DNA from: Eledone cirrhosa
Taxonomy: Eukaryota
Reading direction: 5' to 3'
Length of the DNA: 64,000 nucleotides
Assembly: GCA_964016885.1 (NCBI GenBank)
Contig: OZ024745.1
Coordinates: 43,710,001-43,774,000 of the forward strand
The position numbers were made by a program, and so were the translations under genes. Positions 11,079 to 59,463 of the stretch are shown piece after piece. Each line of letters opens with the position of its first letter. Position 1 is the first letter of the stretch. The notes under the pieces are model-generated. The model did not search any database. It was given only the letters and a program-made list of their open reading frames with translations, and was not told where the DNA came from.

Positions 11079-11502
11079 CACAGTCTTCATAATTTTAATT
11101 TATAAAATATTGATGTTTAACAAATCTTTAACATTTACATACAAACTACAAAACTACACCTGATGTACCCCTTCCATACACATGCACACATGTGTGTATC
11201 ATGACTCGTGCACTGTTCATTTTACTGATGTTTGTGCATTGCCCTATGTACTGTACATGCACTTTTTTGATGAGTTGTGGTGCACCTGGGCACTGCGCAC
11301 AATATTTCGTTATTGTTATTATATCATGACTCATACACTGTTTATTTTCCTGACATTTGTACATTATTCTATGTACTATACATGCACCTTTGATGAGTTG
11401 TAGTGCACCTGAGCACTGTACACAATAATTTCATTATTATTATTATTATTATTATATCTGTCACTGCTGAAAGATCTTAATTTAAGAAGGAAACTAGGTT
11501 AA

Positions 11503-13032: not shown

Positions 13033-14181
13033 CTAAAAGATGGAAAGTAATAAATAAAAAGATGAAGTAAACATTGAAATTGTAAATCACAAAACAAATT
13101 GTCATTTACCATGTCCATTAGCAAGAGGAAAATGCACCAAAGATCAAGTTCAGAATAATGGTACAGAAATTCACAAATAATGCTGTATCAAAAAGCATTA
13201 TCTTATAGTTTCAAATTAATCAGACTCTTATTCAACCCATTTGATACCAAACCACTTGAAACCACCCCCGTTTCTGTGAAAAAAAAACAAAAACTTGCCT
13301 GTTTTAAAATTGTAATACTCATTAAAACCTTCCATCATAATATTATCTAATAACTTTTTGTTATTCTTCCAATGTTTGATTATTTTCAAAATTAATTGAA
13401 ACACAGGCACTATTTTTCATTAGAAACACATTTTAAACTAAAACCACTGGTTTCTCATGTAATCTACTTTAAATATACAATTGAGTAGAAATTAATCTAA
13501 ATTAGCAAATTATGAAGATGATATTGTTACTAATAGTAATAATTTGTTACATAAGCATGTAACAGCCATGTATTTCCCAAAAGTATTAGGAATGAATGCA
13601 AAACCGTTTCAACTAAGTCAAGAACTAAATTCAGCAAGAAGTTACCAGCAGCTACAAATATATAATAATGTATTTGAGTATGTCCAAAGAAAATTTATGA
13701 TTCTGAGAAAAAAATATTTTCCAACAATCTTTTAAATTAAAAAATGAAATTAAAGAGTTAGACAATAGATCAAAATCCTCAACTAAAATTGATTTAACTG
13801 GTTAAGGGTAAAGGTGAAGAAACACTACTTTTCACCTTCAAAAGATTTTGGCTAGGTGCTGACATTTTGGTAAATAACAATGTACAGCACTGCAGTAAAA
13901 AACTGAGAAATTGATAACTAACTGTGTCTCATTTTGGCATAAATGGGAGATTTCTGAAAGTCAATTGTTTAAAAATCTAAAACTGACTGCAGAGATAAAT
14001 CTGTCTGATATTAAAACTAAGAAATGGTTGAGTAGCAAGAACCATAATCTGCCAAGAACAAGCAGTACCACCAGTTACAGCACTAATATTGATTTTATTA
14101 AAGCAAGTGCCTGGTAAAAAGAAGTGACTGCAAGCTGGTTGAATATGGCTAGAGTATGCTTCTGTGATTATGTGTAGAAGA

Positions 14182-14830
<649 letters not shown>

Positions 14831-14934
14831 TAGAGAAACTAAGAGTGAATAAAAACAACTGTATGTGAAAAAGAAAAATGAAAGTTAAGGAGAAACATCT
14901 AGAGAGATAAGAGCGAGCAAAAGAAATGAGAATA

Positions 14935-15690
14935 AAGGAAAGTGTGTTGAGAGTATGGAAGGAAAGTGTGTTGAGAGTATGGAAGGAAAGCGTGTTGAGA
15001 GTATGGAAGGAAAGCGTGTTGAGAGTATGGAAGGAAAGCGTGTTGAGAGTATGGAAGGAAAGCGTGTTGAGAGTATGGAAGGAAAGCGTGTTGAGAGTAT
15101 GGAAGGAAAGCGTGTTGAGAGTATGGAAGGAAAGCGTGTTGAGAGTATGGAAGGAAAGCGTGGTGAGAGTATGGAAGGAAAGCGTGTTGAGAGTATGGAA
15201 GGAAAGCGTGTTGAGAGTATGGAAGGAAAGCGTGTTGAGAGTATGGAAGGAAAGCGTGTTGAGAGTATGGAAGGAAAGCGTGGTGAGAGTATGGAAGGAA
15301 AGCGTGGTGAGAGTATGGAAGGAAAGCGTGGTGAGAGTATGGAAGGAAAGCGTGGTGAGAGTATGGAAGGAAAGCGTGGTGAGAGTATGGAAGGAAAGCG
15401 TGGTGAGAGTATGGAAGGAAAGTGTGTTGAGAGTATGGAAGGAAAGTGTGTTGAGAGTATGGAAGGAAAGTGTGTTGAGAGTATGGAAGGAAAGTGTGTT
15501 GAGAGTATGGAAGGAAAGTGTGTTGAGAGTATGGAAGGAAAGTGTGTTGAGAGTATGGAAGGAAAGTGTGTTGAGAGTATGGAAGGAAAGTGTGTTGAGA
15601 GTATGGAAGGAAAGTGTGTTGAGAGTATGGAAGGAAAGTGTGGTGAGAGTATGGAAGGAAAGTGTGGTGAGAGTATGGAAGGAAAGTGTG
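14935..15690. repeat. 24-bp minisatellite, ~31 copies (gagagtatggaaggaaagYgtgKt)
   Basis: Read directly; explains the repetitive ORFs at 14899-15786. Confidence 0.97.
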
Positions 15691-16708
15691 TAGTGAAAGC
15701 AGAAAGAAAATTAGAAGAAAGGGCTCAAAGTTGAAAAGAAGGTTTATAGATTGGAAGAAAGTTTTGTTTTTGATAAGTAATAACAAATTTCAAAAGTATA
15801 TTTTCTCTTCAGAAAGAAAATACTGGAAGAGAGGTCAAACAAGGAAGGAATATACAAATATAATTTTATATTTCAAATTAAATAAAAGAGAAAAACTGCA
15901 TGTAAAATAAACATTAGTGAATTGCTACCTTTAGCAAAATTGATTTTTTTTTTTTTTTTTTTTTTTTTACATTGGCAAGTAAAGTGGGGATTGGATTAAT
16001 GTAAGAATATTATAAATATTTCTTATATCGACCCTAAAGTAAAATCTAAGCTATGTAGGATTTGAATTTGGAGCATAAAAGAGTGAATCTAAGTACTCCA
16101 GTTGTTTACTTTTCAAAAGTATAGAATTTATTAACACTCATACAGAATTTCTATTACTGAAGATAAGGTATTATATGTGGCAATATAGAAAATTGTTACT
16201 AATCTACCAAAGTAATTAATATCTATAGGTATAAAATAAGAATAGTCCTGTTATAGGAATATATTAGAAAAAAAAAACAAGCATGCTCTTTCTAGAAATT
16301 TCTATTGCTAAAGTATGCTATGTTCTCAAAATTCTTGTAAAGAATAACAAGACTGATTTACAATTTACTTCTATTGAATCATATATATGAACTCTTAACA
16401 TGAAGCACCACATGAAACCACATTAGTACTATGGTACTATGAATTCAAAATTAAAGTCTTTACTCTAATACTGAAAAATTTCCAACAATCTGTCCACTTG
16501 TAAAGATACTATAAACATTTGAATTAACAAATCATAAAACCACATAAGATATTTTTAAAACATTAAACAATCCTGACTGTATCACATCAAAATTTGAAGT
16601 CATCACTCAAATAGGGAACATTTTTACAACAAGTTCTCTATTAGCAAAGATACTAGAAGCATTTAAGAGTTAAAGACAATTTAGAAAAGAGAAATTCAAA
16701 GAACTTAC

Positions 16709-37229: not shown

Positions 37230-40200
37230 TTAGAGATGCCTACTGGCAAGGCGGGTCTTCTCTGTTACTGAGTACCGCCAAAGGTCACGGTCCAGTGACA
37301 TTGTCTTGGAGAGGTGTAAGTGTGTGAGGTCGGAGTTTATCAGCTCATCCCATGTTTTTCTAGGTCTGCCTATTCCGTGGCTACCGTCTATCTTTATTGC
37401 CCTGCACTTTGTAATACAGCTATCGACTTTCATGCGCATCACGTGTCCATACCAACGCAGCCTTCTCTCGAGTAAACAACATCTGATCCCTCTTATCTCT
37501 AATTTTTTCCTTAGTTCGTTTATGCTTTGCCGTTCACGTATATTACTGTTACACATCCAGCGGAGCATGCAAGCTTCGTTCCTCTCTAGTCTGCGTATAT
37601 CCTCTGCACACAATGCCCAGGTCTCACTACCATGCAACATTGCTGTTCGTATGCAGGCATCGTACAACCTGCCTTTCATTTTTAGGGAGAACCCTTTAGC
37701 AGCTAATAGTGGTATAAGCTCTCTGAACTTTTTCCAACCAGTTCTGACTCTAGCTACAGTACTTTCAGAGCACCCTCCCCCACTGCTGATTTTATCGCCC
37801 AGGTAACGGAAGCTGTCCACTATTTCTATAGAACCCTCTGCGCAATTGAAAGAGCTAGTATTTTGTGGGCACTTGCTGCTACTTATTGCACCAGAACACC
37901 GGCCACATGTAAAGTCTATGTTCTTAGTTAGCTTACCTGTGATCCCACTACATCTTTTATGCACCCATACTTTGCATTTAGGACATAAGATGGAGTTTCT
38001 ACCTACGCCTTTCCTACATGCCAAGCACGACCATTTCCCAGAAGGGACCGCCGCCTTGTTTTCTTTCCTACAAACTAGAACTTTGGTCTTAGCCAGGTTA
38101 ATTTTAAGTCCTTTTGACTCTAGGCCGTGCTTCCATGTTTGGAATTTCTTCTCTAGCTCGGCCATTGATTCCGCTATGAGTGTCAGGTCGTCTGCGTATA
38201 GGAGTTCCCATGGGCAGCCTGTCTTGAACTCCTCTGTTATAGCCTGAAGGGCAATAATAAATAGTAGGGGGCTGAGAACAGAGCCCTGATGGACGCCAAC
38301 TTTTACGCTAAACTCTTCACTATATTCGTTGTTAATTCTAACCTTGCTGACTGTTTCTTTATACATGGCTTGTATAGCCCTCACAAGCCATTCGTCAACG
38401 CCTAGTTTTCTAAGAGCCCACCAGATAATGGAGCGGGGGACTCTGTCGAAGGCTTTCTCCAGGTCGACAAAAGCTAAGTAGAGGGGTTTACCTTTAGCTA
38501 GGTACTTCTCCTGTAGTTGTCGTACTATGAAAAGAGCGTCTGTGGTGCTTTTGCCTGACACAAACCCGAACTGCATTTCATCTAGATCAATTCTCTCTCT
38601 GATTAGTTGCGCTATTACTTTTTCCGTGACCTTCATGACCTGGTCGATTAATTTAATGCCTCTATAGTTTCTCCTATCTAGGGCGTCTCCTTTACCCTTA
38701 TAACAGTTAACGATGATGCTGCTATGCCAGTCCTTCGGAACAACCCCATTCTGTACGACTTGGTTAACTATGCGGGTGACCATGGTGTGTCCCACCGTGC
38801 CAGATGCCTTCAGCATCTCAGCAACTATTTCCGAAGGCCCAGCCGCCTTACCAGTCTTCATATCCTTGATTGCCTTACTTATTATACTCCCCTCGACTAA
38901 CACTGCTGGTCCCTCTATCGGGTCGATATGGGGGAGACTGTCTTTCTCCCATTTATTCTCCTCATTTAGTAGCCTTTCATAGTGACACTTCCAAGCTACC
39001 TTTTTATCAGTGTCGGTGATGGCAAGTATGCCATCATCGTTAAGTACACACTTCTCCCCGACAATATCACGGTTTTCCTTGACGCATTGCCTGGCAATCC
39101 TGAACACCTCACGTTTTTGGTCATCGCGTTGTAGAACATGCTTGAACTTTCTTTCCTCAGCTTCCCTTCTTGCTAAGTACACTTCTCTCCTAGCTTCCCT
39201 CCTGGCCACTTGATAGTCTACTCTACTTCCCCCATCCCGCCATACTTTCCAAGCCTGCCTTTTGGCCTTAATTGACCCCTCCACCCTACTGTTCCACCAC
39301 CATGTTACTCTCCTCCTGCCTACAGGCCTGCTCCAGCCACAGACTTCGTCTGTCGCCAACAGCAGGTTTGCTTTCAGAAATTTCCACTGTCCCTCTATAT
39401 TGTCCGATTCTAGATGCTCTTCCTTACTGTCGAAAGCATCAAGTAATATGCTTTGAAATTTATTTCTGGCTGTGGGGTCCTTTAGTTTCCATATTTTCCT
39501 CCTGAGGATAGTCCTCTTCTGCTGTCGGGTACGTCTCGTCCTGACTATGAGGTCGCTAATTATCAGTCTATGTTGGGAGGTGCATTCTTCATGGGGGAGG
39601 GATTTAGTGTTTACAACAGACACTCTGTCACGTCTTCTGGTAAGGATATAATCTACCTGGCTTGTGTGTTCCCCGGATCTATAGGTGATCAGGTGATTGT
39701 CACGTTTTTTGAAGTTAGTGTTACAGATAGTTAGGTTATTTGCATCACAGTATTCCAGGATTCTGGAGCCTTCCTCATTTCTAGTACCAAACCCATAGCC
39801 TCCATGGATTTCGCCGTAGCCGTCACAATGTTGTCCAACGTGACCATTTAGGTCGCCTGCAATAATTATATAGTCACTGTCAGATATTTGGGAGGTAGTT
39901 AGCAACAGTGTCTCATAGAATCTGTCTTTTATAGTGCCGGGCAGTCCGGATTGGGGTGCGTACGCAGATATTACTGTCACCGTAGTTCTATTGAGGACAA
40001 GTCTTATTTTCATTATTCTGTCGTTCACTCTATTTACGTCTATTATCTTATCTGCCCACTTTTCTGCTACCATGATTCCTACTCCACCCAGCCCATCGTC
40101 GTTTCCCACCCAGAAAAGCTTATAACATCGTTTTTTACCCTCAATGAATCTAGCAGACCCACCCCTCCACCTGGTCTCTTGAATACAACAAACATCGACC

Positions 40201-40508
40201 TCCTTACGTTCAAGCATTTCTACAACCTCGTTAGCGCGACCCTTTAGGGTGCCTACATTTATGGTACCAACTCTGAAGTTTTGGGTTGCGTTTGGAGGGT
40301 GGGGGTGGTGGGGGGCGGGAGGAGATAGGGTTATGTTAGCCATCCGCGGACGAAACAAAGAGGAGTGCTTGCATTCTCGTCCACGAGGTGAATTTGACTT
40401 TAACTTTGGCATTTTCGCTCTGAGCGTCCAGATTTTTCTCTCCCTTCCACTCTCCAGGATTCCGCAGTCCGTCCGTCCATCCATCCATCCATCATATATC
40501 GAAGGCAA
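37230..40508 (-). CDS. RTE polyprotein: APE endonuclease + reverse transcriptase + PHD-like Cys/His finger (intact ORF; plausible ATG starts at 40412 or 40343)
   Basis: Endonuclease motifs GTINVGTL, CIQETRW, GDLNGHVG, VDYIL, SQHRL; RT motifs YRGIKL, FVDLEKAFDRV, GVHQGSVLSP, YADD, FRYLG; C-terminal RLRWYGHVMR and GRPRKTW typical of RTE. Confidence 0.96.
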   Translation of the reverse strand: MPSIYDGWMDGRTDCGILESGRERKIWTLRAKMPKLKSNSPRGRECKHSSLFRPRMANITLSPPAPHHPHPPNATQNFRVGTINVGTLKGRANEVVEMLERKEVDVCCIQETRWRGGSARFIEGKKRCYKLFWVGNDDGLGGVGIMVAEKWADKIIDVNRVNDRIMKIRLVLNRTTVTVISAYAPQSGLPGTIKDRFYETLLLTTSQISDSDYIIIAGDLNGHVGQHCDGYGEIHGGYGFGTRNEEGSRILEYCDANNLTICNTNFKKRDNHLITYRSGEHTSQVDYILTRRRDRVSVVNTKSLPHEECTSQHRLIISDLIVRTRRTRQQKRTILRRKIWKLKDPTARNKFQSILLDAFDSKEEHLESDNIEGQWKFLKANLLLATDEVCGWSRPVGRRRVTWWWNSRVEGSIKAKRQAWKVWRDGGSRVDYQVARREARREVYLARREAEERKFKHVLQRDDQKREVFRIARQCVKENRDIVGEKCVLNDDGILAITDTDKKVAWKCHYERLLNEENKWEKDSLPHIDPIEGPAVLVEGSIISKAIKDMKTGKAAGPSEIVAEMLKASGTVGHTMVTRIVNQVVQNGVVPKDWHSSIIVNCYKGKGDALDRRNYRGIKLIDQVMKVTEKVIAQLIRERIDLDEMQFGFVSGKSTTDALFIVRQLQEKYLAKGKPLYLAFVDLEKAFDRVPRSIIWWALRKLGVDEWLVRAIQAMYKETVSKVRINNEYSEEFSVKVGVHQGSVLSPLLFIIALQAITEEFKTGCPWELLYADDLTLIAESMAELEKKFQTWKHGLESKGLKINLAKTKVLVCRKENKAAVPSGKWSCLACRKGVGRNSILCPKCKVWVHKRCSGITGKLTKNIDFTCGRCSGAISSSKCPQNTSSFNCAEGSIEIVDSFRYLGDKISSGGGCSESTVARVRTGWKKFRELIPLLAAKGFSLKMKGRLYDACIRTAMLHGSETWALCAEDIRRLERNEACMLRWMCNSNIRERQSINELRKKLEIRGIRCCLLERRLRWYGHVMRMKVDSCITKCRAIKIDGSHGIGRPRKTWDELINSDLTHLHLSKTMSLDRDLWRYSVTEKTRLASRHL

Positions 40509-40702
40509 CCGGGCAAGCGATAGTATAGGCCTCTGGCTTATGATTTGGTCCGCGTAATAATAATAATGGTGATGCGTGGGGGTGGGGGGCTCTGGCTTAT
40601 AATAATGGTGGTGATGCGTGGGTGGGGGGGCTCTGGCTTATGATTGGTCCACGTATTAAGTATGGTGGCGTGTGGGGGCGGGAGGGAGGGGTGTGGGGTA
40701 GC

Positions 40703-45377: not shown

Positions 45378-46392
45378 CTGAAATTCAAAATTTAACCAGT
45401 TAAAATGATTCATCATTACTAATTAACATTTAGAATTTTTTATAAAGCAATCAGTAGATGTAGAACATTTATATCAACACAACAGCAAATATTTTTTAAA
45501 CATTAAAAATATAACCTTTACAAGTGATGAATATATAAGTGATGAATATATTGGTTGTTCGTTATAACTGCTGTATCAGTCTTGTTATTTATATATTTTT
45601 ACATCATGCATGCTTCTCTTTATGCAACCTCAGAGTTCAAATAGCTGATAAAATGAGATTCCTACCAATTTTCTGATAGTACTTTAAATCCAAGTCAACC
45701 AATTTTAATTGCATGTTCTAATTGTATCGTTAGAAGTACTGATATGAGCACCCAAATGGTTAAGCTTACATTGTAAACAATGTATCATTGTTTAACATCT
45801 GCTTTTCCTGCTGCCAGTAAGGGTTAGACAGGTCATCAGCAGGCCGGGTTGATACTCAAAGCAGAGGTGCTAACCCCATGATGACCTAGGAGTCAGCATC
45901 TCACATACATTTCTGCATCCTACAGAGTTGAAACAAACCAGCAGCCCACAACTAGATTACATACAATCCCATGCACTACTAAGTGAATGTTATTGTGTTA
46001 CCAACACTAAGGTGGTTGTCACGTATTTGGTACAGCTGAAAAGACCTCCCAACCAGTTATTTGACAGATTTTCTATGGTTGGATGCCCTTCCTATCATCA
46101 ACCACTTTACAGAGTGTACTGAGTATGTATATGGAGATTATTTTTTTCTTGCTTGCTTGCTTGATTATCAAGAACTTAAGATACATGAACATGACCTGGG
46201 CCTTATACAGTGTTACTCTAGGTAAGAAAATAAGTTAAAAAAATAACATTTTTGTTTTTACTCATTAGTTATGAAATTCAAATTATAGAAAGGATAAGAT
46301 GGTTTTATTTTAACAAATTACAAGAAAAATATTTTATTTAAAAAAAAAAATCAGTGTGATACAAGTAAAAACTAAAATGTAATAATACTTAC

Positions 46393-46485
46393 AAAACGAG
46401 ATGAGTTGTCATTTTTAATGGTTTTGGCATTTCCAAAAGCTTCAAGGATAGGGTTAGCTTGTAACAATTGGTTTTCTAGTTCACC
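46393..46485 (-). CDS. zip: NMHC exon: [31 protein letters not shown] (switch I)
   Basis: 93 nt, cag / gtaagt. Confidence 0.96.
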
Positions 46486-49400
46486 CTGAAATGTGTGATT
46501 GTATGATTTCAATTAGATTGTGAAGATGTACAGCTTTGATATTCTGTTAAAAGTATAAGACATGTCACTACTCAACATTAAAATACCCCAATGGTATTGA
46601 AATTTATAATTAAAGAGACATCTTAAATGAACAGATGTAATAGAAAAAAAAATACCATTAAACAGACCAAAACCAGTTGTTATAAACTAAAACAGATAAA
46701 AAACCAACTTTTAATTGTTTTAAATGTAGAAAGAATTTTTTATGGACAATACATTTGATGGAGCAATGGAAACTTAATTCATACACCTCCATCTTAACAT
46801 AGCTAGGATGGGCTAGGAAATAGCTAGGAAATTTAAATATTGCATATGAACTGTTGAAAGCAATTATTTTATATTACAACTGGCGAACAACAGTGTCAAT
46901 GCTTTCAGGTTTCAAATGAGTCAATCACTTGTGCAATGTATTTTTGAGGGAGTGTCAGTAACTGCAGAACAAAAAAATATTCGTCAAAAGAGCACCATTT
47001 CTTAAATAATATTTACATCCTTTGCCAATATGAATCTACAGTTTCCATCTACCAAACTCCACCTCTGAGGCATTGGTCAACCTGAGGCCATGCTAGAATG
47101 CATTTGACCAAGGTGACAGTCATGATAAAAACTCCATAATTGCATAGCCATGCCTGCTAACAATATCAACTGGAAGATAGAGGTAATATCTATTTTCAAC
47201 AAAAATAACTGGAGTCAGGCAGCAGAGCTGCTTGCTAATTCTATAATTTTGGCCAATATTTTGTTATAGAATTAAGTTTTGAACTAATAACTATCATTAC
47301 CAACAAAAAATATCCAACAGAAATATTTCAGCTGTGACATTTAAGTACATTTTAAAATCCCAAACTTTGAAGATGACTTCAAATCTTAGGAAAAACAACT
47401 CAAGATATATATTCTTTTAATTCTTCTAATTGAAAACAATGACAGGTCTACAAAACTACGATAGTAATTTCAGGTGTATAAAGAATCAATCACCAGAAAT
47501 TGAGCAAATAACTTAGTGTGTTTATTAAGCTAAAATAGTTGAATTATCATTAACAGTATGATTATAATTTGCTTACATTATTGTGACCAGTTAAAGTAAG
47601 GATTAGCAGTAGAAAGGATATCCACTTGTAGAAATACTTTTTAATAATACACAAATATTGAATTAATTACTACACTTGTGCTACCATCGAAAAATTGTTT
47701 ATTCTTGATATGTTTTGTTGTTGATTTTTAACAAAGATGCCATTTGTAGGAATGCTGAATGATCCTGTAATGATTTAGCAGAAAATGTCTAAAAACATGT
47801 CTGTTATTTCAAATGTTTTATAATATATTTACAAGTGGACATTATAAAAATTTGCAGTAAACCAAAATAACAAAAATTCCATTTTTAATTTGATTTAGTG
47901 CTGTTTTATACTTTTTGAGTATGTCTTGTTTATTTAGTTTCATGTGGTACAAGATGTTAAGCATTAAAGAAATTACTGTAACTTGTTGGAAAATGCCAAG
48001 TTAATTTTTCTAATGCTAACTGTTCGCTTTTTCATCACAGTAGACTGAATTAATTAGAGCAATCTCCTTTGACCAAGTATGCAATACAACACCTAAGATG
48101 TGTAGTTTTTACCCATAAAGTTCATCAATAATACTCAGGTGCTAAAAATTCAACAAATCTTTTCTGGTAACACACATCAGAAATACCTCAGTAAAAACCG
48201 TGGCTGAAGAATCTAAAAGACTAATTCAAATGCCAATTCAGAAACTTACAACTACAATAGCCTAATTAACATGAAAGCTGGATATTTCCACAATGAAGTA
48301 CAATAATTAGAGCATAAGCATTTTTTTCCATTGTGGCTAATAAAAGAAAAATTATATATATTTTAAATGTGAACATAAAATAAATATGAAGAATTACCAT
48401 ATTGAAGTTAACAGGTTTTTTATAGAATAGACACTATCAAGATAGCTTCCACTCCACAAAGAATGTCAATATATTAATCTTGGAAACTCAGAACTGACAA
48501 TAATCCAAAGCAAAATATAGCTACAGAGAATAAATTACAAGAGGTGGAAGTTGATAAAAATATTGCAAATTATTGCAGGAAGTGGACAGAAGAGAAATAG
48601 CCTTGTGAAAGTTTGTAAGTTGTACATCAAAGCTAATCTGTAGATTTTTAATGGTTGATGGTACCACCATCATAACAGTGGATGGTATCATTAGTCTCAT
48701 ATTGAAGATATGACTTGGTACTATGAGAATGTCAGCAAGTATCCTGAAGTGGAATACTCTAGTAATAGTGACCAAGTATTGAGTGTAGGTTAGGATACTG
48801 TGAAGAATAAAGAATAAATAAGAGTTCATAGAACCCAATCCAAAGGGACAGATACAGTAAAAAAAAAAAAAATCTTGTTAAGAATATTAGAATTAGTTTG
48901 AAGAACATTACCATAAAATGTTTCTCAATTGTACTAAAGAACTATATAAGTCCAAAATGTGTTTAAGATGGTAACAGTTATTTATTTTGAACAAGCTTTA
49001 AAATGTCCATAAGAAAACACAAGAAGCATTATTTATTACTGAATGTAATTATATTTTGATAGTCAAATGAAAAATAACAGCAACAAGAGAAAGTATAATA
49101 ATGATCACTATATTAGCATTTCCAACAGATAACTGAAATAATCTTAGTAGAGATTGTTTAAACTTATGGAAGATACACTAAATGTCTTTAATGACAAACA
49201 TGCAGACATTGCTTCATCAAAACAAGAATTTTAGAACAATTACAAGAAAATGTCACTACCAATGCTCTCAATAATGTTTTAATTAACAAGGAACAAAAGT
49301 AATGAAACAGAAGAATAGCATACAATAAAAATAAAGTCTTGGAACATTTTCTAAAAGAGATATATGGATACAATAGCCATGCCATTGTCATGTAGGAAAA

Positions 49401-49572
49401 TAGGCAATTATTCATTTATATGTGGATTGTTTTAAACCCTGCTTCTAACTCATAATATGAAAACTAAGTCTTCAGATTTTTTTTAACATTAGAGATTCAG
49501 AATCTGCAAAACAATTTTTTTAAATCAGAAACAGTTAGGGGATTTAAAGCAACACACACACAATACATATAT

Positions 49573-49703
49573 ATATTTAATATAGAAATGGCTTCAACAG
49601 GACTAGAACTGTTTCATTCGGAGGAAATCATCAGGGCTTTCCTAATGATTTCCTCCGAATGAAACAGTTCTAGTCCTGTAGAAGCCATTTTTATATTAAA
49701 TAT
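49573..49703. repeat. Palindrome with 63-bp arms, 5-nt loop and 3 mismatches; contains a type I hammerhead-like fold (Penelope-like terminal repeat remnant)
   Basis: Arms 49573-49635 and 49641-49703; CT(G/A)ATGA...GAAA-CAG...CTG-TA motif. Confidence 0.85.
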
Positions 49704-52700
49704 TTATACTCTGCTATGTATTGAGTACCTTACTGTGGTTACCCCCAATTAAACCCGGGATACACACACACATTATATATATATATATATATATATTATT
49801 TATTTATATTTACACACACACACACACACGTAGCTCTTAATCTCTTCTAACCCATAATCAGTTTTCGATTAAAAAAAAATAAATAAATAAAAAAAAATAA
49901 TTTATTATTTTAAACTTACAAATTTTTGCAGATTATGAATGTCTGATGTTCAAAGCAAAAATCAAAAGACCATTTTTAAAAAAAGTCAAGGAGGAGAGAA
50001 TGTTTAAATGAATAAATGCCAGAAAATGTATTGATCTAAAACTACAAAGGAAAGATAATTGACAATGGTTTTTAACACACCGGTTTAGTATTATTGTTCT
50101 CTTTTAACAAACCATTATCTTAATTTCTAGCCTGGCCAAAGAACCATGAGCATGACTGCTTTGAATTACTTTTGGATGATTCTTCACCCCCATTCATACT
50201 AGCTACAAGATTAAATCAGTCACCTCGTTATATCTGTAAACATTAACTCAACAAATAAGGTGCTGCTAAACTTGAAACCTCAACTGTATTGAGGTAAGCA
50301 AACATCATTACTAAAATAATTTATTTTTTCAATAACAATATTCAACATCTGGTATATCATATATAAATATGTTATATATATTTAAAAAAAAGAAATTACA
50401 AAAAGACTATCTTACTTTCTGACTTTAAATGTTTAATTACTATAGATTATTATTTCATTTCAGACATTTAACTCAATAATGATGGCTTCACTTTTCGTCA
50501 GGACAATGAGCACTCTGTTGAATGAATTCCTAGTCATGAAATTAACATGTAAGTGGCTGAGTATTCCACGGATACTTGTACTCTTAGCATAATTCTCAGA
50601 CTGAATCAGTATAACAAAATGTAACAAGGCTGTATTTTCAAATTACAGATACAATCCAGAGAAAAATAAAGGGAGACAAATCAACTCCAGTGCTAAACTA
50701 GTACTTTACCGACTCCAAACGTACAAAAATGTAATTTGAACTCAGAGCGCACAGAGCTGGAATGAATACCACAAAATATTCTGTCTAATGATTGAAAAAG
50801 TCAGCCCATTTACCATCTTTAAGCTAATAATAACACCAATAAAATAATGTCAAATAGGAATATTGTGATATTCCACTTTAAATCTTCTAAACCATTAGCA
50901 GATATACTGAAAATTTAACTTATTTAAATGAGAAATTCTGTCACTGAAGCAATTATGTAAAACCAATTCCTGCTGTTGGTAGAAAATTTTCTTCTGAAAA
51001 GCTAAAATATTTCAGTTTATTGAAAGTGCTTGCTTTTATTTCTCTTTTGACTGCAATTTTCACGGCACACTAAAAATGTTTGGTCTGATATACCATTTCA
51101 TTTTGTAATTAGATGTTTTATATTTCTTAGTAAGATATGGATTTTGAAAACATTAAACCCCCTATTCCTCCTCCTCAAGATTTATTATTCTAATCAAATG
51201 TATTAAATATAATTATATGGCTTCACTACTGCTAATTTTTTATGTTGAAAGGTCATAGATGTTTTGTTTTTTAAAGAAACATGCAATACTATACAAAGGC
51301 AATCAATACATGGCATAATTCTAGCAATCATGAATGACAAAGGTTTAGAAACAATATTTAATACAGAGTGTCCCATAACACATGCCAATTTTTAATTGGT
51401 CACATGAACCAATGACAATTTAGCAATGTATAACATATAATTGCATTCCATACAATTAGAATTTGTTTTAAAATTATTACAGCATTAATATTTGCCAACT
51501 TGAATAGATAGGGTTACTGTAGCTAACAGATCTTAACTGCAAGGAAAATAACAATAACAATTTATTTTTGCACACCAATAACTGTTGAAACATTTGAATA
51601 AATATCTAATTTTTATGACAAACCACAGGCAACTCCACAAGTGTTGAAGAAACTGAGGCAATTTGAAAGTTCTCATAACTTTGATTTTGTAATATTTAGA
51701 AGAATCGTGATGTCAGAGACTTCCTTTTTACAAATAACTGCATATTCAATAATGCTGGCCCCATTATAAACATGATTACTGTAGGAGGGTCAATGAACAA
51801 AGTATTTAGATAAATCTCCTCTTAACAACAATAACCACCAATATCATTGCTATATATATACAAAGCCTATATTATTTCTCCCCAAGCTTTATATCAATTA
51901 GTACCACCCCACCCCACAAAAAAAAAAAGGTTTTGATAAACCAGTAAATGGCAAGAACTATTTTATGTTAAGGAATAATTTCATGTATAACATTCTGAAA
52001 TTTCGCATATTTTGCCAGTTTATTAAAATGTCAAATTAAGTTGGAATTCAACTTTATTTTTCTAAAATTCTAATTGTAATGGTCTGCAAATAAACTTATT
52101 CTTCAATTTGTTTTTTAATAGTAATTTAGAAATCTGTATGGCTTATCAGATAGCCTAAATACTAAATGGGACAAACTGTATATACCATGAACATGTCATT
52201 ACTGCATTTCTATAGAAACTAAATATCAACACAAAGCTAGCAATTTCTCAAACTTCTAAAATGAAATTTTATTCAAAGACTTGTTTTGCTGAGTATTCTG
52301 TCCATATTTCATTGGTAGACCATTTATTGGGGTAGATTTGTGATTCATTAAGCAATAAACTACAAAAGTATATAAAAAAACAACTCTTTCCTGACTCATC
52401 TAAAGACTGCCTCTTTACTGGGATTAGATGAAACTTGGAGATTATAGATCTTAATTATACTCTTGGGAAGAAAGATGGCAATATACTAAGTAAAAGTTTT
52501 ATATATTGTATGTCAATGATCTTAGAAGACAAAAGAATGCTTATTTTACTTTTATAATCTTCATTATATGTTCTGTGTTATCAATATGCCATAATTAATC
52601 TACTTAAGTTGTAATGTAAAATATTATTTTGAGAAATTTTTATTTTTCAAGTGTAACTCATACAAACTAAGGCACAGAGTAAATTCAAATGGCAGTGCTT

Positions 52701-53094
52701 TCAAATCATTTAAATATGTTACATACATATATTAACTGGAATTATGAAAAGAGAACACAAACATTTAAGAAGCTTCTACCGTTTCCAATAAAAGAGCCAA
52801 CTCAATCAAAATCTCAAATTAAGTACTTGTTCAACATTTAAATCTCAGAAAATAGCAAATGACAAAAGTAAATATATATAAAAAGATTTCAGAAGATTGA
52901 GAAGGCTTCCAGATAAATTAAAAACAGCTTATTAGATATACAACAAATATATTAAGTCCAGCAAAACATAAAAAGCTCCAAGTGAAAGCAAGTTTGTCAA
53001 AAAGCCAGATTAATAATAACAATAATAATAAAAATATAGAAACATATACAGTAACTGATGATTTGTAATGTCAAAATGAAAAAAATGAGCCAAC

Positions 53095-53142
53095 CTTTTT
53101 CATGTATACCATGCTTGTGACTGACTCCTCGCTGACCACACC
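53095..53142 (-). CDS. zip: Candidate alternative loop-1 exon, 48 nt (GVVSEESVTSMVYMKK)
   Basis: ttattaacttag acceptor, CTAAC branch-like motif ~30 nt upstream, AAG/gttggc donor, phase 0/0, no stop codon. Confidence 0.65.
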
Positions 53143-53276
53143 CTAAGTTAATAAACAGATTACATGCCAAAAGTTAGATTCATGCATGCTGCAGTGTAAG
53201 CGTGTTGCCTTCCACATATGTGCCACAAAATAAAATATTAGATGTGAAAACTACAATTGAATTAAAACATACTTAC

Positions 53277-53294
53277 GAGATTCAGCTCCTTGCT
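53277..53294 (-). CDS. zip: Candidate alternative loop-1 microexon, 18 nt (SKELNL)
   Basis: ctctctttatccccttttag acceptor, gtaagt donor, phase 0/0, ~57-nt AG-free zone, UGCAUG motifs on both sides. Confidence 0.75.
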
Positions 53295-56200
53295 CTAAAA
53301 GGGGATAAAGAGAGGAATTGAGAGTTAAAACATGCAAACGGTCATGCATACAACTGACGCTAACTGGCTGTTAGCACAGGAAATTTATTGTGATCGATAC
53401 ACCCAGTGGTACTGTGCTCGTGAAGATAGTCTATTGAGGTGGTGTACAGACAGTGCATACTAATAATTATGACTGATGTGCAGTGATCAATCAGCATACA
53501 ACTAGCCAAAATATATTCACAGCTTCATCACAAGACAAATACACTTATCCTTCCACCCACAAAGGGAACTCACAGCAAATCATTATTTATATCAAACACT
53601 AATCAGTGAACTTCACAGCTATATATTTTTCTGTGTACAGAGAGAAAAACAAAATCTATACACATTTGTTTTCTTTTTCACAGCAAAGATTGTAATTTAA
53701 AATTAGGTACATTAAATTTAGCTTAGAGCTTTTAATATATACAGTGTTGTGCATAAATATTTATTACCTAATTAATTACACTGCTGACAAAGGCATGTTA
53801 TAAAAATTAGATTGGCCATTTTAGCTAACTGGTGTGTGATATAGAAATTTACTATGAATTATTTTTGTAGGCAGAAGGATAAAGTTACTTTTCTGATGAA
53901 CTGCCAACTAACTGGGAAAAATGTAAAGGTAATTCCCATATTTTTCTGTTTATGAAGGGAATAACAAAATATATACACATTTGTTCATATTTTCACAGCA
54001 AGGTTTATAATTTAAATCTGCAGTTATAACTAAATAAATATCTTAAATTTGCTAATATATGCTGTGTTGTGCATTAATTTAAATAATCAGAATTACTGAG
54101 TGGTATAGAATTTAATACCAAATTCTTCAAAATAGCAACATTCAAGATCCATTCAACTGAATGGATCCTAAATGTAAGACAAAGTTTAAAATTATTTAAA
54201 CTTACTTTGAATTATTTAAACTTACTTTGAAGTGTTCTGGTTGTTCAATCAATAGAACTCCCTACTCATTGAAATTATAGACAAAGCAGCCAAGTATCCC
54301 TAATTTAAAGTAATCTTCAAGCAGAATCAGTGTGATATGAATAGAACCCTAATTTATATGGGTTCAGTCTATGTCATAATCTTCTATAGTAGTCATCTAC
54401 TCAATTTCACTCAAAAGTTTTGGGTCACCCCAAGGCTATCATAAAAGACACTTATTTAAAGTGCTGAATTAGATAGGGTAGTGTGAAATGAAACGGAAAA
54501 CTTATTTGTTATAGGTGTGTATTAGAAGGTAAATAACGATGTACTAAAAATAGGTTAGTGAAATAGACATTTAATGGTCCCAAAGTTAACAGCAGAAATG
54601 TTTTAAAATATCCATATCACAATTAAGCAACCACTTAAGAAACTGCAGATCCAGATAATCAGGTTGGAAGCTGAATCAGATTTTCATTGCAACCTTAAGA
54701 GATGTCTGGAAGACAGACTACTTTCACTGAACTACACTACAACTGGTAGATGACCAACAGTTTTGGCTGTTTGTAAACCTATATTAACCCTTATTGAAGG
54801 AGATGAATATTTTTTTTTACATAATTAAACAAAGAAATAGTTTCATTTTTAAGTTATGAAATATTTCTTAAGCTAGAAATGTCATTCAAATAACTGAAAC
54901 AGAAATAATGTTTTCAGTTGACAAACTCATCACCTTTCATACTAAATATTAACAGAAGAATGTTTCATAAATAAATTATTCAAAATAGAAATGAGAGTGG
55001 AGGAGGTAGAGCAAGATTAATATCAGATTTACAATTTATCAAACTATTTACATTTAAGACATATTTATAATAAATAATCCTCTTGATTGAGAGTGCTTAA
55101 AACTTTATATTGCACATTCTTTCCCTTTTTTACATTTCCAGATCTTGTTTTAACCCTTTTAATACAAAACCAACCAAAATCACCCCTGCTTTTACAATAT
55201 CAAACTGTTTTAATGTGTCCATATTTAAGAAGTTTCGTTAAGTTATGTTTCAAACATCAGCTTGATAATGAGAGAGCCAATTCTTTTTCTAAATCTCTTT
55301 AAATCAATTATTCTCAAAATTATTTGAAACATATGGATTGTGTGTTTCTTTTAATGATAAGGTTAATGTTATTGGAAATATATCTAAATAATTGAGATAT
55401 TTAACATTAACATTTTAATCAGAATAAGTGATAACACGTAAAGTTGAATATCTGAATCTATAGTTTAGCATATATTTGAATCTGAAATAATTTTTCTTCT
55501 AAATTAGATTTTAGGGAAGATCATTGCTATTTAAGAGGATACCCTGTGTGAAACCATGATGTGGACTTCACTTTAAACAAGGTCATACCACAAGATACTA
55601 AACTGCATGTGATTGCATGTGGTTATGAAAAGCAACTGGATCAATCCTATGGTATTCAAGAAAATCTACAATGTATGTTGGCCAAAATGGTACATTTGCA
55701 ATCCAATATGCTGTATTGCTGCTTGCTCGAATAAATAAAGCAATTGTATTGATAACTTTAAACAGAGCAGTGAAAGTATCATAGCACTCTCAAGATAAAA
55801 TATCTTTAATCAATAATACAATCTAGCCTAGTCATGTCTACTAGGCCAGTGGATAACAACTTTTAGTACTGATATAAAATATACTTATTATTATATTACA
55901 ACTTAGTTTAGATATTATAGCTCACACCTATGTAAGTTGAGCAGCTCTCCTATGAGGTTTCTCATGTGTTTTAATGATAGGGGCTGCAATCCTATCATAA
56001 AACAGGCTTCACCCACCCTGAACTGGATGTTAGTTCGTTGCAGGAGTTAACCCTCAGTTGCTACTGGTAGTCATTTCTTTTTCAGCTGACTTAGGCCACA
56101 CCCAATCTAGATGGAACCACATTGATGAAGACAGACTAGTCAATCAAGTTTAAAAATAATAATTGTTGATTAATATCTTTTACATTTCCAGATCTTGTTT

Positions 56201-56387
56201 TAACCCTTTTAATAAAAAACCAACCAATATCAAACTGTTTGTTTTAATGTGTCCATATTTAAGAAGTTTCGTTAAGTTGTTTCAAACATCAGCTTGATAA
56301 TGAGAGCCAATTCTTTTTCTAAATCTCTTTAAATCAATTATTGCTTCAACTTAGCTTTTTAATACTCACCACATTAAATACAATAAC

Positions 56388-57430
56388 TATTCGAGTTTTT
56401 GGTCATGTCTTTGCATTACCATAAATGTAGTTCTAAAGAGTCCCATATTGTCAGTAAAATCAAAGTCTGAGAGTCTTCCTATCCCCATTTGAGGCTATAT
56501 GCTAGATCCCTCATAGTGAACTCCACTATTAATCGGAGCAGCACCTCTGTGATAACATCAAGCCTCTCTGTATTTCCATCTTTGGTTCTGACAACAGGCT
56601 TTCCAGTAAAATGATCACATATTGTTGTTGTTGATAGCCACTCCATACAGTGCAATAATCTTCACTAAAGACTCCCTGTGTACACTGCCAAAGGTCTTTT
56701 GGAAGTCAATGAAGTTGACCACATACAACTTCTAGAATTTGTCACTTGGCTCAATGCTATTGTGTAGTGTGAGGATTTTTTCACTGCACAACCTTCCACA
56801 TCTGAATCTGGCCTTCTACTCTTATAAATGCTCATCAACTGTTCTTCATGCAGGTAAGGACATTACAAAAAGCCTTTCCAGGGATAGACAGCAGGGTTAT
56901 TCCATGCCAGCTGTTGCAGTCATTTAAAGTTATTTTCTTGGATAATGTTACTACCACTCCATCGCCTAATGCCTTGTGGACATACTCTTCATGCCATATT
57001 AAGTTGTAAAGATGTCCCAATTCTTCTGCAGTGACATCTCCATGCTCAAGTGAAGTTGATCTTCAGATCATCTTTGAAAAGACCAAAGTGATGCTTATGG
57101 GGAAAGTATAGCAGCAACCAGTCCAGCTGGAAAGCCAGACTCTGAAGACCATTGACACCTTCTCATACCTGGGCAATTGTTAAAGATGGCAACTCAAGAA
57201 CTGATGTCGGAAAGAGACTTGACAAAGTTGCAGCTGTCTTTCAGCACCTGAAGCCTGTATGGCCCAACTCCTCCTTCTGCTGAGACAAGGCTCTATCTGT
57301 ATCACATCAGTCATTGTGCCAACAAGAACTTATGCTTGGAAGGCATGAAAAAAGACCAAAATAATCTACAAAACTACAGGTGTCTTCCACAGATTTCTTG
57401 GCATGACCACATCACAAATGAAGAAGCTGT
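56388..57430 (+). mobile_element. Decayed RTE/BovB-like copy with an inverted 5' segment (56388-57050 on -, 57051-57430 on +)
   Basis: Minus strand: CNSWHGITLLSIPGKAFCNVL, NFIDFQKTF, LSDFDFTDNMGLF. Plus strand: VDLQIIFEKTKVM, IDTFSYLG, DVGKRLDKVAAVFQHLKPVW. Confidence 0.78.
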
Positions 57431-58257
57431 AGTTGGGGGTCTGTGGAGCAAGACCTGACCAGGGAGGAGGTCCATGACAGAGCTTTCAACTGTGTGGCAT
57501 GGAAATCTCTTCACTGATGAGGTAATAAGACCAAACATATTCAAAGTTGTCTCCCATACTTGTTAAATGAAAAAAAAAATGAAATGATATTAATCATTGA
57601 CTAACAGTTTTTTTTTTCTTTATAGTTAGCCTTTTGACGATCCCTAGATTAAATATATTAACACTAACAAACTACCAGTATACAATAGCTTGTTCAACAC
57701 TTAGCAAAATGGAAAAATGAACATAAAATGGTGTTCATATCCACAGATTTTCCACTGAAGAATAGAAAAATCATAAATAAATTACAATATGTAAATATCA
57801 ATACTAAAAAGAAATACATGTAACTAATTTTAGTAAGTCTCAACTAGATTAGTTTTTGTGTGAATGAGTGTATAATTATGTAGTTATGCTAGTCATACTA
57901 ATTAAAAGTTTTATATATATAAACTACAGGAACACATGTAAGTGCAGTGCACCAAAAGTGAGTGACCAGCTAGTAATAATAGTAGCTTATAGCTTTACAG
58001 TTGACACACAACACATATTACAAGAAGCCACAACTCAAGTAAGTTATCTATTAAACACAGCATGCTTATAAGAAAATATATAAAAACATTACTATACAAC
58101 AAACAAAATATTAAAAAACAGCAAAAAAAAACAATTGTACTTTGTAGCAGCTCTTAAAGATGTATTTCACCAGTATAGAAAATTATATTTCTTGAAAGTT
58201 CCCTAGCATTATAGCTTAGATTAAAGTTAGCAATGATATAAAAATGAAAACACACTA

Positions 58258-58463
58258 ATAATTGTTTCTACTTTTGGCATAAGGCCTGCAATTACCCCAG
58301 TGTATTACTGGTGCTTTATTTTATCGACCCAGTAAGGACCCAGTAAGGACCCAGTAAGGCAAAGTTAACCTTGGCAGAATTTGAACTTAGACCATAAAGG
58401 GCCATAACTATGCTGCAAAGCATGGCGTCCGGTCCTCTACCAACACTGCCAATCCACCGCCTC
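58258..58463 (-). mobile_element. Same SINE family, with an internal 11-bp triplication
   Basis: Matches 2240-2420; cccagtaagga repeated three times. Confidence 0.85.
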
Positions 58464-59260
58464 AGCAGGTAATATTAACTTACAATAACTACTAAATCAC
58501 AGAAACTTATTTTTTTAATTATTCATTTGTAGATAGCATTACAACGATACACACATAAGAGCATATTTTTAATCACAAAGTCAGGAAGGGTCAGCAGTGA
58601 CCATAACCATTTTCAGAGTCTCCAAGACTGGTGGAAAGGAAAGAGAAAGGTATCTTCAAATCAGATCCTTGTCCCAAATGCTTGCAACAGACTACTCCCA
58701 CTAAAGTCAACAAAAGGTCAGGTGGTGTTAATCTAGTAATGGATTTAGTCTGCAATCAAAGTAGGTTACAGCAGGACTTTATTTTGGAACACAAAGAGCA
58801 TCCCCACCAAGGTTTTAACAATTCTGCCAATCCACTATTCTAGATTGGTACTTTGTCAACCCAGAAAGATGGGCAAAGCTGACCATAGCAGGATTTCAAT
58901 TCAGAAAGTAAGGAATACCTATTTAGAAAAAAAAACTTTAAAACTAACTTCTTAAGTCACAAAATCTATAAAAGATTGATCTTTTCAATAAAGACAATAT
59001 TTCATTATTCAATTAGACACTTCTTAGCATATAATTGGGAAGTAAATTTTATAGCTTCATTTTTTATACATGGAAAGAAAAACAAAATTGCTTTGGTTTT
59101 ACTTTCTTTACTTCCATTTCCACAAAGTTCTTTATATTTAAATATAAAGTTTTGGTGAAAACATCTTGAGGCCATAAAATACAATAGAATTAACAGAAAA
59201 AAAATAAAAGAAGCAAAATAAAAAAAAGGGGTTTAGTTGCTACTGTCCAAGAAAACATAC

Positions 59261-59381
59261 CGAACTATGGAAACTGGACGTTGATGATCGATTGTTAGCA
59301 ACTCGGGATGATGCTGCTACGAAGGCCAGATATTGAATGACTTTTTTTGTATTCTCTGTTTTACCTGCTCCAGATTCACCT
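59261..59381 (-). CDS. zip: NMHC exon: P-loop and start of loop 1 ([40 protein letters not shown])
   Basis: ttacag acceptor, gtatgt donor, 121 nt, ends phase 0. Confidence 0.95.
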
Positions 59382-59463
59382 CTGTAATAAAATATGTAAA
59401 TATATGTAGTTAATTATTTAGACCAAAGTACATTAATATAACTAAGAATTTTTTAACTTAACA

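Follow-up and report, generated by a model that had tools for sequence, protein, structure and literature searches.

The minus strand of the window (the whole 64,000-nucleotide stretch of Eledone cirrhosa DNA analyzed here) carried a myosin II heavy-chain gene with two cassette exons at loop 1: an 18-nt microexon encoding SKELNL (exon A) and a 48-nt exon (exon B). Exon A was spliced and optional in several species and, from the sequences compared, appears to be ancestral at least to the sampled molluscs, nemertean, and annelids. Read depth strongly indicated that, in a single sample from a close relative, the main form had exon B spliced in full length and no exon A; exon B is very likely real, likely restricted to octopods, and looks recent.

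The non-muscle myosin II gene and its loop-1 intron

In a collinear arrangement, 26 exon pieces matched P0003 (residues 183-1541), a non-muscle myosin isoform from Octopus bimaculoides with Myosin_N, Myosin_head, and Myosin_tail_1 domains: 24 pieces with 72-100% identity, and the other two, both of which crossed small introns, with 62-64%. The best full-length protein matches were named non-muscle myosins; with a motor, a coiled-coil tail, and a closer similarity to proteins named non-muscle than to those named muscle, the gene was assigned to the non-muscle myosin II heavy chains. The intron between 59261 and 46485 (12.8 kb) was the largest exon-exon gap mapped in the window, the second being 9.7 kb. 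Four of 24 sequencing runs were chosen for alignment to 46340-59420: X1 (close relative), X22 (own species), and X23 and X24 (DNA). The features of this intron were as follows (in the order of transcription):

59261..59380, minus strand: flanking exon on the 5' side, encoding the P-loop and the first half of loop 1; its phase-0 donor lies at 59260
53073..53495, minus strand: conserved block enclosing both exons and all clustered motifs; one contig each in X23 and X24
53331..53348 (53348-53343 and 53336-53331), minus strand: two UGCAUG, -54 and -42 from exon A, 5' of its branch candidate
53295..53330, minus strand: acceptor region of exon A, with its polypyrimidine tract and branch-site candidate; 95% pyrimidine over 20 nt
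53277..53294, minus strand: exon A, 18-nt microexon SKELNL; phase 0; pyrimidine-rich acceptor and GTAAGT donor
53163..53189, minus strand: inter-exon cluster of three GCAUG, at -47, -43, and -25 relative to exon B, the one at -43 being part of a UGCAUG
53095..53142, minus strand: exon B, 48-nt cassette GVVSEESVTSMVYMKK; phase 0; GTTGGC donor; one exonic GCAUG
46393..46485, minus strand: downstream flanking exon (GELENQ..., switch-1 region), mapped in the window

The upstream flanking exon was 94% identical to residues 183-213 of P0003. Exons A and B were both in frame at the 25/50-kDa junction and immediately ahead of the GELE helix, which is the position of a loop-1 cassette in class-II myosins. 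The first-pass annotation had described two phase-0, frame-preserving exons 134 nt apart at loop 1 in the largest intron; their coordinates, splice sites, and phase were confirmed. Its view of both as real loop-1 cassettes also held, by direct observation for exon A and by reconstruction from one run for exon B, and we are highly confident that the two exons are real.

Several other elements were noted in the window. A stop-free frame of 1135 aa at 37233-40637 (minus strand), with endonuclease, reverse transcriptase, and PHD-like domains, was an apparently intact LINE-type retrotransposon in a myosin intron, in the same orientation as the gene. The stretch just upstream of the conserved block, 53496-54082, measured ~590 nt here vs. 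~45 nt in two relatives, a lineage-specific insertion or duplication; it contained a direct repeat of 79 nt whose copies were spaced by 315 nt. Two more intronic pieces aligned in relatives (88-90%): 51262-51587 and 52449-52990, the latter with a weak candidate for an exon of 9 nt at 52735. The 68-nt inverted repeat at 49568-49708 (5-nt loop, 94% complementary) showed high depth in X22, but not in X1; it probably represents a young family of repeats and could be a substrate for editing. In an intron of the rod region, extended low-complexity and tandem arrays (14171-15724) gave rise to spurious long open frames.

Occurrence and splicing of exons A and B

The branch-site candidate of exon A was UUUAAC, with the A near 53325. 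A single substitution (53322) was listed for its acceptor region in relatives and none for the exon itself in three close relatives, and the donor remained consensus. SKELNL was identical at the same place in P0003, and the cuttlefish protein P0121 had TKELNL; the hexamer was missing in P0004 of Doryteuthis and P0006 (isoform X4) of Argonauta. Inclusion and skipping were both found across cephalopod records, and two abalones showed both within a species: isoform X1 with exon A and isoform X2 without it. An A-like hexamer was present in 22 of 36 named lophotrochozoan proteins vs. 0 of 8 arthropod, tardigrade, nematode, and acoel rows; the 36 proteins were hand-picked (redundant abalone isoforms and unnamed records left out), one source search was seeded with exon A, and the pattern was widened for SKELSY and GKEFTF after both had been seen. 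The hexamers included QKELNL in a chiton, NREINL and HRDINL in clams, HKDVNL in a mussel, SKDINL in oysters, NKEFNL in abalone, NKDFNL and TRELNL in snails, YKDINL in a nemertean, and YKDLNL in an annelid. Two non-muscle myosin records of Nucella (P0094 and P0130) carried differing microexons, SKELSY and SKELNL, the former of which resembles the ending of the vertebrate insert.

A scan of metagenome contigs for an acceptor, the hexamer, and a donor gave 21 matches. Seven of these were located behind a myosin P-loop exon and formed three annelid-like lineages: L003/L012, L005/L016/L018/L020, and L006. Three of the seven also displayed the downstream exon; in L006 and L018, its phase-0 start coincided with that seen here. 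The other 14 matches, on contigs without a myosin exon, were not counted; L011, L017, and L002 are candidates for true exons. These comparisons indicate that exon A is common to Lophotrochozoa and is not a cephalopod feature, which corrects the earlier reading, and this deep conservation is a more solid result than the vertebrate-like RBFOX reading considered below. Exon A was already present in automated database isoforms, and the loop-1 splicing system is not of a new kind. No prior description of either exon was found in listings of the openly accessible literature; the main text of a preprint (bioRxiv 10.64898/2026.09.05.749416) made no mention of myosin, and its supplements on O. bimaculoides may list these exons.

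Pieces of exon B near loop 1 were found in no protein from the full-length-myosin or A-seeded searches, and the exon was absent from four cephalopod proteins. A splice-site filter applied to the intron gave seven candidates, which included exon A and missed exon B; the other six were without support. The joint of exon B was not among the 15 joints listed (225 others), and its splicing was reconstructed from depths in X1, presumably an RNA run; since this is one sample and contigs lose rare forms, the result concerns the main form only. Record 8 of X1 (depth 100) spanned the upstream exon and 76 letters beyond its end; the next base after the exon was G, compatible with exon B or skipping, but not with exon A. 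Record 1 began 2 letters ahead of the downstream exon. As 76 equals 48 plus 28, the two records would overlap by 30 letters, as expected for adjoining contigs from 31-letter words. With the listed records subtracted, the cassette bin retained 47.8 letters and the downstream-exon bin 27.2 letters at depth 100. Inclusion of exon B alone predicted depths of 12.8 and 54.6, respectively, identical to those observed, while the following forms did not fit: skipping (1.9 and 65.5), exon A (6.0 and 61.4), short B (9.4 and 58.0), A+B (17.0 and 50.4), and A with short B (13.5 and 53.9). The internal donor in exon B proposed in the first-pass annotation does exist in the sequence (ATG/gtatac); the 11-aa form that it would produce found no support and was rejected for X1 on these depths.

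The depth of 12.8 in the cassette bin compared with 0 to 1.7 in the non-repeat intronic bins of X1, and this bin is not a repeat because both DNA runs (X23 and X24) gave single-copy depth. In the own-species run X22, the interior of the upstream exon had a depth of 0 and the cassette bin one of 0.38, which was uninformative on splicing. Exon B might be non-functional, that is, merely a stretch of conserved regulatory intron beside exon A with a coincidental match of the X1 depths; its joint outside those listed, the lack of a protein match, and the weak donor would agree with this. Since three independent numbers fit inclusion of exon B alone and the intronic bins and DNA runs also argue against it, we regard this explanation as highly improbable.

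The proposal of at least four isoforms was borne out for three, namely, the skip, A-only, and B-only forms, each evidenced in different cephalopods, while no A+B form was found. The junctions previously listed for checking did not contain 59261>53142, which is the one supported by RNA. All of the evidence for inclusion and skipping came from species other than that of the window: exon A with and without in abalones and cephalopods, and the reconstructed B-only form of X1 vs. cephalopod proteins without exon B. With a spacing of 134 nt and the branch candidate of exon B ~100 nt from the donor of exon A, joining of both exons does not appear to be sterically barred. Isoform numbers in abalone decreased with length, the A-only octopus record was X3, and the skip record of Argonauta was X4. 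As a weak hint, this numbering leaves room for two longer forms, although other splicing events would explain it equally well. Loop 1, which is expected to be disordered, would comprise 21, 27, or 37 residues or, if both exons were joined, 43.

GCAUG cluster and putative control by RBFOX

The inter-exon sites (GCAUG at 53189-53185, UGCAUG at 53186-53181, and GCAUG at 53167-53163) flanked a CUAAC branch candidate (53177-53173) and were located ~90-110 nt downstream of exon A; a sixth GCAUG was inside exon B. The three UGCAUG and the extra GCAUG were thus positioned as stated in the first-pass annotation. The three UGCAUG alone were a modest signal (scan P 0.057 over the whole intron). The six GCAUG in 53095-53394 were the sole such cluster on either strand of the 64 kb (scan P 3.5e-4, with the 300-nt counting interval drawn around the exons), and this number was reached in 0 of 2000 dinucleotide shuffles, corresponding to a non-random enrichment near the exons, a trait of RBFOX-regulated exons. 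A second UGCAUG triplet (11181-11386) was set aside, being largely derived from a ~125-nt duplicated stretch without extra GCAUG. One GCAUG and one UGCAUG were also noted at 51385 and 51285, 1.7-1.8 kb downstream of exon B, within the piece (51262-51587) aligned in relatives.

The conserved block (53073-53495) had 29 and 30 substitutions in 423 nt (~7%) vs. X23 and X24, whereas the other listed intronic pieces had 11.2% and 10.5% (Fisher P 0.011 and 0.041, respectively), X23 and X24 being closely related and thus not independent tests. The coding exon had a similar rate (9 substitutions in 122 nt in X1). The block ended 22 nt beyond the donor of exon B. The third UGCAUG was not conserved: in all three relatives, the site at 53186-53181 was UGCUUG. 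The GCAUG that overlaps it (53189-53185) was unchanged. GCUUG is a secondary RBFOX motif. Among the five intronic sites, two were readable in the relatives, one kept and one changed; 40 rows of substitutions were listed (492 others), with full resolution at 53179-53326 only, outside of which the other three sites lay. Within 150 nt of exon A, one of the three annelid-like lineages had 2 GCAUG (each within a UGCAUG and upstream), another had 1 (also upstream), and the third had 0; ~1.3 were expected in total, and the counts, on the same side as here, were not significant.

RBFOX sites upstream of an exon lead to skipping and those downstream to inclusion, according to two studies (PMC5840707, PMC3082911). 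As most sites here are upstream, repression of exon B is predicted, opposite to vertebrate N30. RBFOX is probably involved in the choice of the loop-1 exons and, given this involvement, repression would be the likely sign of control of exon B; a vertebrate-like activation probably has the wrong sign for this exon. A switch between exons A and B by RBFOX at the GCAUG cluster is slightly favored overall. In such a switch, the three sites around the branch point of exon B and the one inside it would block exon B, the inter-exon sites, ~100 nt downstream of exon A, would favor exon A, and the two sites at the branch point of exon A would damp it. The +16 form would then come from cells poor in RBFOX, and the short forms, with 0 or +6 aa, from cells rich in it (neurons and muscle in other animals), and the change in loop-1 length would tune nucleotide release. 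This kinetic effect, extrapolated from other class-II myosins, may be small. The change of one of the three UGCAUG in all three relatives speaks against the switch, and the CUAAC/UAAC elements near the exons could equally recruit other factors.

A different arrangement, toward which the first-pass annotation leaned and in which RBFOX raises inclusion of exon A and/or exon B in neurons as for MYH10 N30, would be consistent with the inter-exon sites, since 90-110 nt downstream of exon A is an activating position, and with the sites at 51385 and 51285, whose distance past exon B resembles that of the N30 enhancer (1.5 kb; PMC3082911). The distal pair, however, was at background density (~1.1 GCAUG per kb), and an N30-type downstream UGCAUG was clear for neither exon: exon A had three sites at approximately +90 to +110 together with two at its branch region, and exon B had four GCAUG upstream of or inside it, with none in the following 320 nt. 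Exon A was also in the representative isoform of most species, unlike a minor neuron-only exon (a weak point, the search having been A-seeded). We consider neuronal activation to be unlikely. There is a similarly low probability that the exons are real and the cluster is incidental or secondary, with the choice made by branch-point or pyrimidine-tract factors (QKI/How or SF1 at CUAAC/UAAC, PTB, or MBNL) or by the weak donor of exon B (GTTGGC). The third UGCAUG changed in relatives, L003/L012, with ACUAAC and no GCAUG within 150 nt of exon A, and the weak donor of exon B together with its failure in the splice-site filter agree with this explanation; the uniqueness of six GCAUG in 300 nt within the 64 kb disagrees with it, and the changed site retains the overlapping GCAUG and, in its new form, contains GCUUG. 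The RBFOX switch between the two exons is our preferred reading.

Loop-1 inserts of other myosins and recurrent stacking

MYH10 N30 belongs to the same gene family, affects the same loop, and also has UGCAUG elements in the intron; it is neuron-specific and activated from an enhancer 1.5 kb downstream, as described in PMC3082911, whereas the sites here were proximal and mostly upstream of the exons. According to PMC10480317, MYH10 (NMHC II-B) B1a/B1b have two insert sizes, 10 and 16 aa, of which the 10-aa B1 insert raises ATPase and motility only slightly, while the 8-aa insert of MYH14 gives a clearer increase and is not neuron-specific. Exon A resembled the inserts of MYH11 SM-B (7 aa) and MYH14 C1 (8 aa) as a short insert directly before the GELE helix, and QGPSFSY of MYH11 SM-B aligned opposite HKDVNL, a homologue of exon A. 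Among 118 parsed vertebrate matches (of 119 new), 111 ended with [LF][AS][YF] before the helix; this search was seeded with such a loop and covered MYH11-type loops only. The MYH11/MYH14 inserts and the homologues of exon A both end hydrophobic-small-hydrophobic (L-N-L here; one paralogue of Nucella has L-S-Y). They differ in having no sequence identity beyond this ending, in length (21 or 24 nt vs. 18 nt), and in having no counterpart of exon B, and six or seven residues cannot prove homology of exon A with the vertebrate inserts. The 21-nt Myh11 and 24-nt Myh14 exons of the mouse are classed as alternative, not neural, in table S2 of PMC8797185.

Loop 1 is also altered by splicing in molluscan muscle myosin (scallop, and the A/B/C isoforms of squid); unlike the gene analyzed here, this one encodes striated-muscle myosin, and in scallop the exons are large and mutually exclusive. 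Molluscan loop-1 splicing is linked to ADP release (PMC3912159, PMC4757648), a longer loop 1 of scallop muscle myosin accompanies faster ADP release (PMC3912159), and cephalopod muscle-myosin isoforms are not tissue-specific (PMC4757648), which cautions against assuming tissue control here. Exons A and B may change ATPase, ADP release, or motility by analogy with these and related myosins (PMC3912159, PMC3535348, and PMC10480317).

Exon A shared its 18-nt length, frame preservation, and UC-rich pyrimidine tract with the neural microexons of the eMIC (SRRM3/4). A UGC "close" to the 3' splice site was taken as within ~20 nt, and no eMIC-type UGC was found near either acceptor, the nearest being at -42 for exon A and -44 for exon B. 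Drosophila zipper carries a loop-1 insert, of which no confirmation was found in the literature searched. The sole zip row in the supplementary tables of PMC8797185 was a 134-nt neural exon, and the same source describes a UGC near the 3' splice site of eMIC-dependent microexons, with no numeric limit in the part available.

Other loop-1 inserts have been placed beside exon A or its position in several lineages, as read from protein records of different species with exon boundaries inferred. A heterobranch insert of 12-14 residues was present with exon A in Biomphalaria and Bulinus and without it in Aplysia and Lymnaea, and Physella and Elysia had exon A alone, without this insert. Littorina had an 8-residue insert after exon A, oysters an insert before it, and scallops, Mya, Dreissena, Babylonia, and Tegillarca other loop-1 inserts. 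By eye, none of these resembled exon B. At L006:3786-3833 (plus strand), in an annelid-like locus, a candidate phase-0 exon of 48 nt with a strong donor was also noted upstream of the exon A homologue; its sequence was unrelated to exon B. In a broader scenario, doubtful at present, the bilaterian ancestor already had a loop-1 microexon from which both exon A and the short inserts of MYH11/MYH14/MYH10 descend; RBFOX would have controlled exon A for >550 million years, with a sign rewired between lineages, and the intron would have been a nursery in which vertebrates, octopods, heterobranch snails, periwinkles, oysters, and scallops each gained a second exon of their own, giving a loop-1 code of two exons.

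Descriptions of non-muscle myosin II commonly present its loop-1 splicing as a vertebrate refinement. What stands out here is an ancient, optional six-residue exon of lophotrochozoans, beside which unrelated, lineage-specific second inserts appear to have been gained repeatedly. Loop 1 may therefore serve as a natural test of whether the tissue-specific microexons of one intron are ancestral or convergent and of whether the RBFOX position rules hold in spiralians, and the natural variants of 0, 6, and 16 residues would allow the effect of loop-1 length on a non-muscle motor to be probed.
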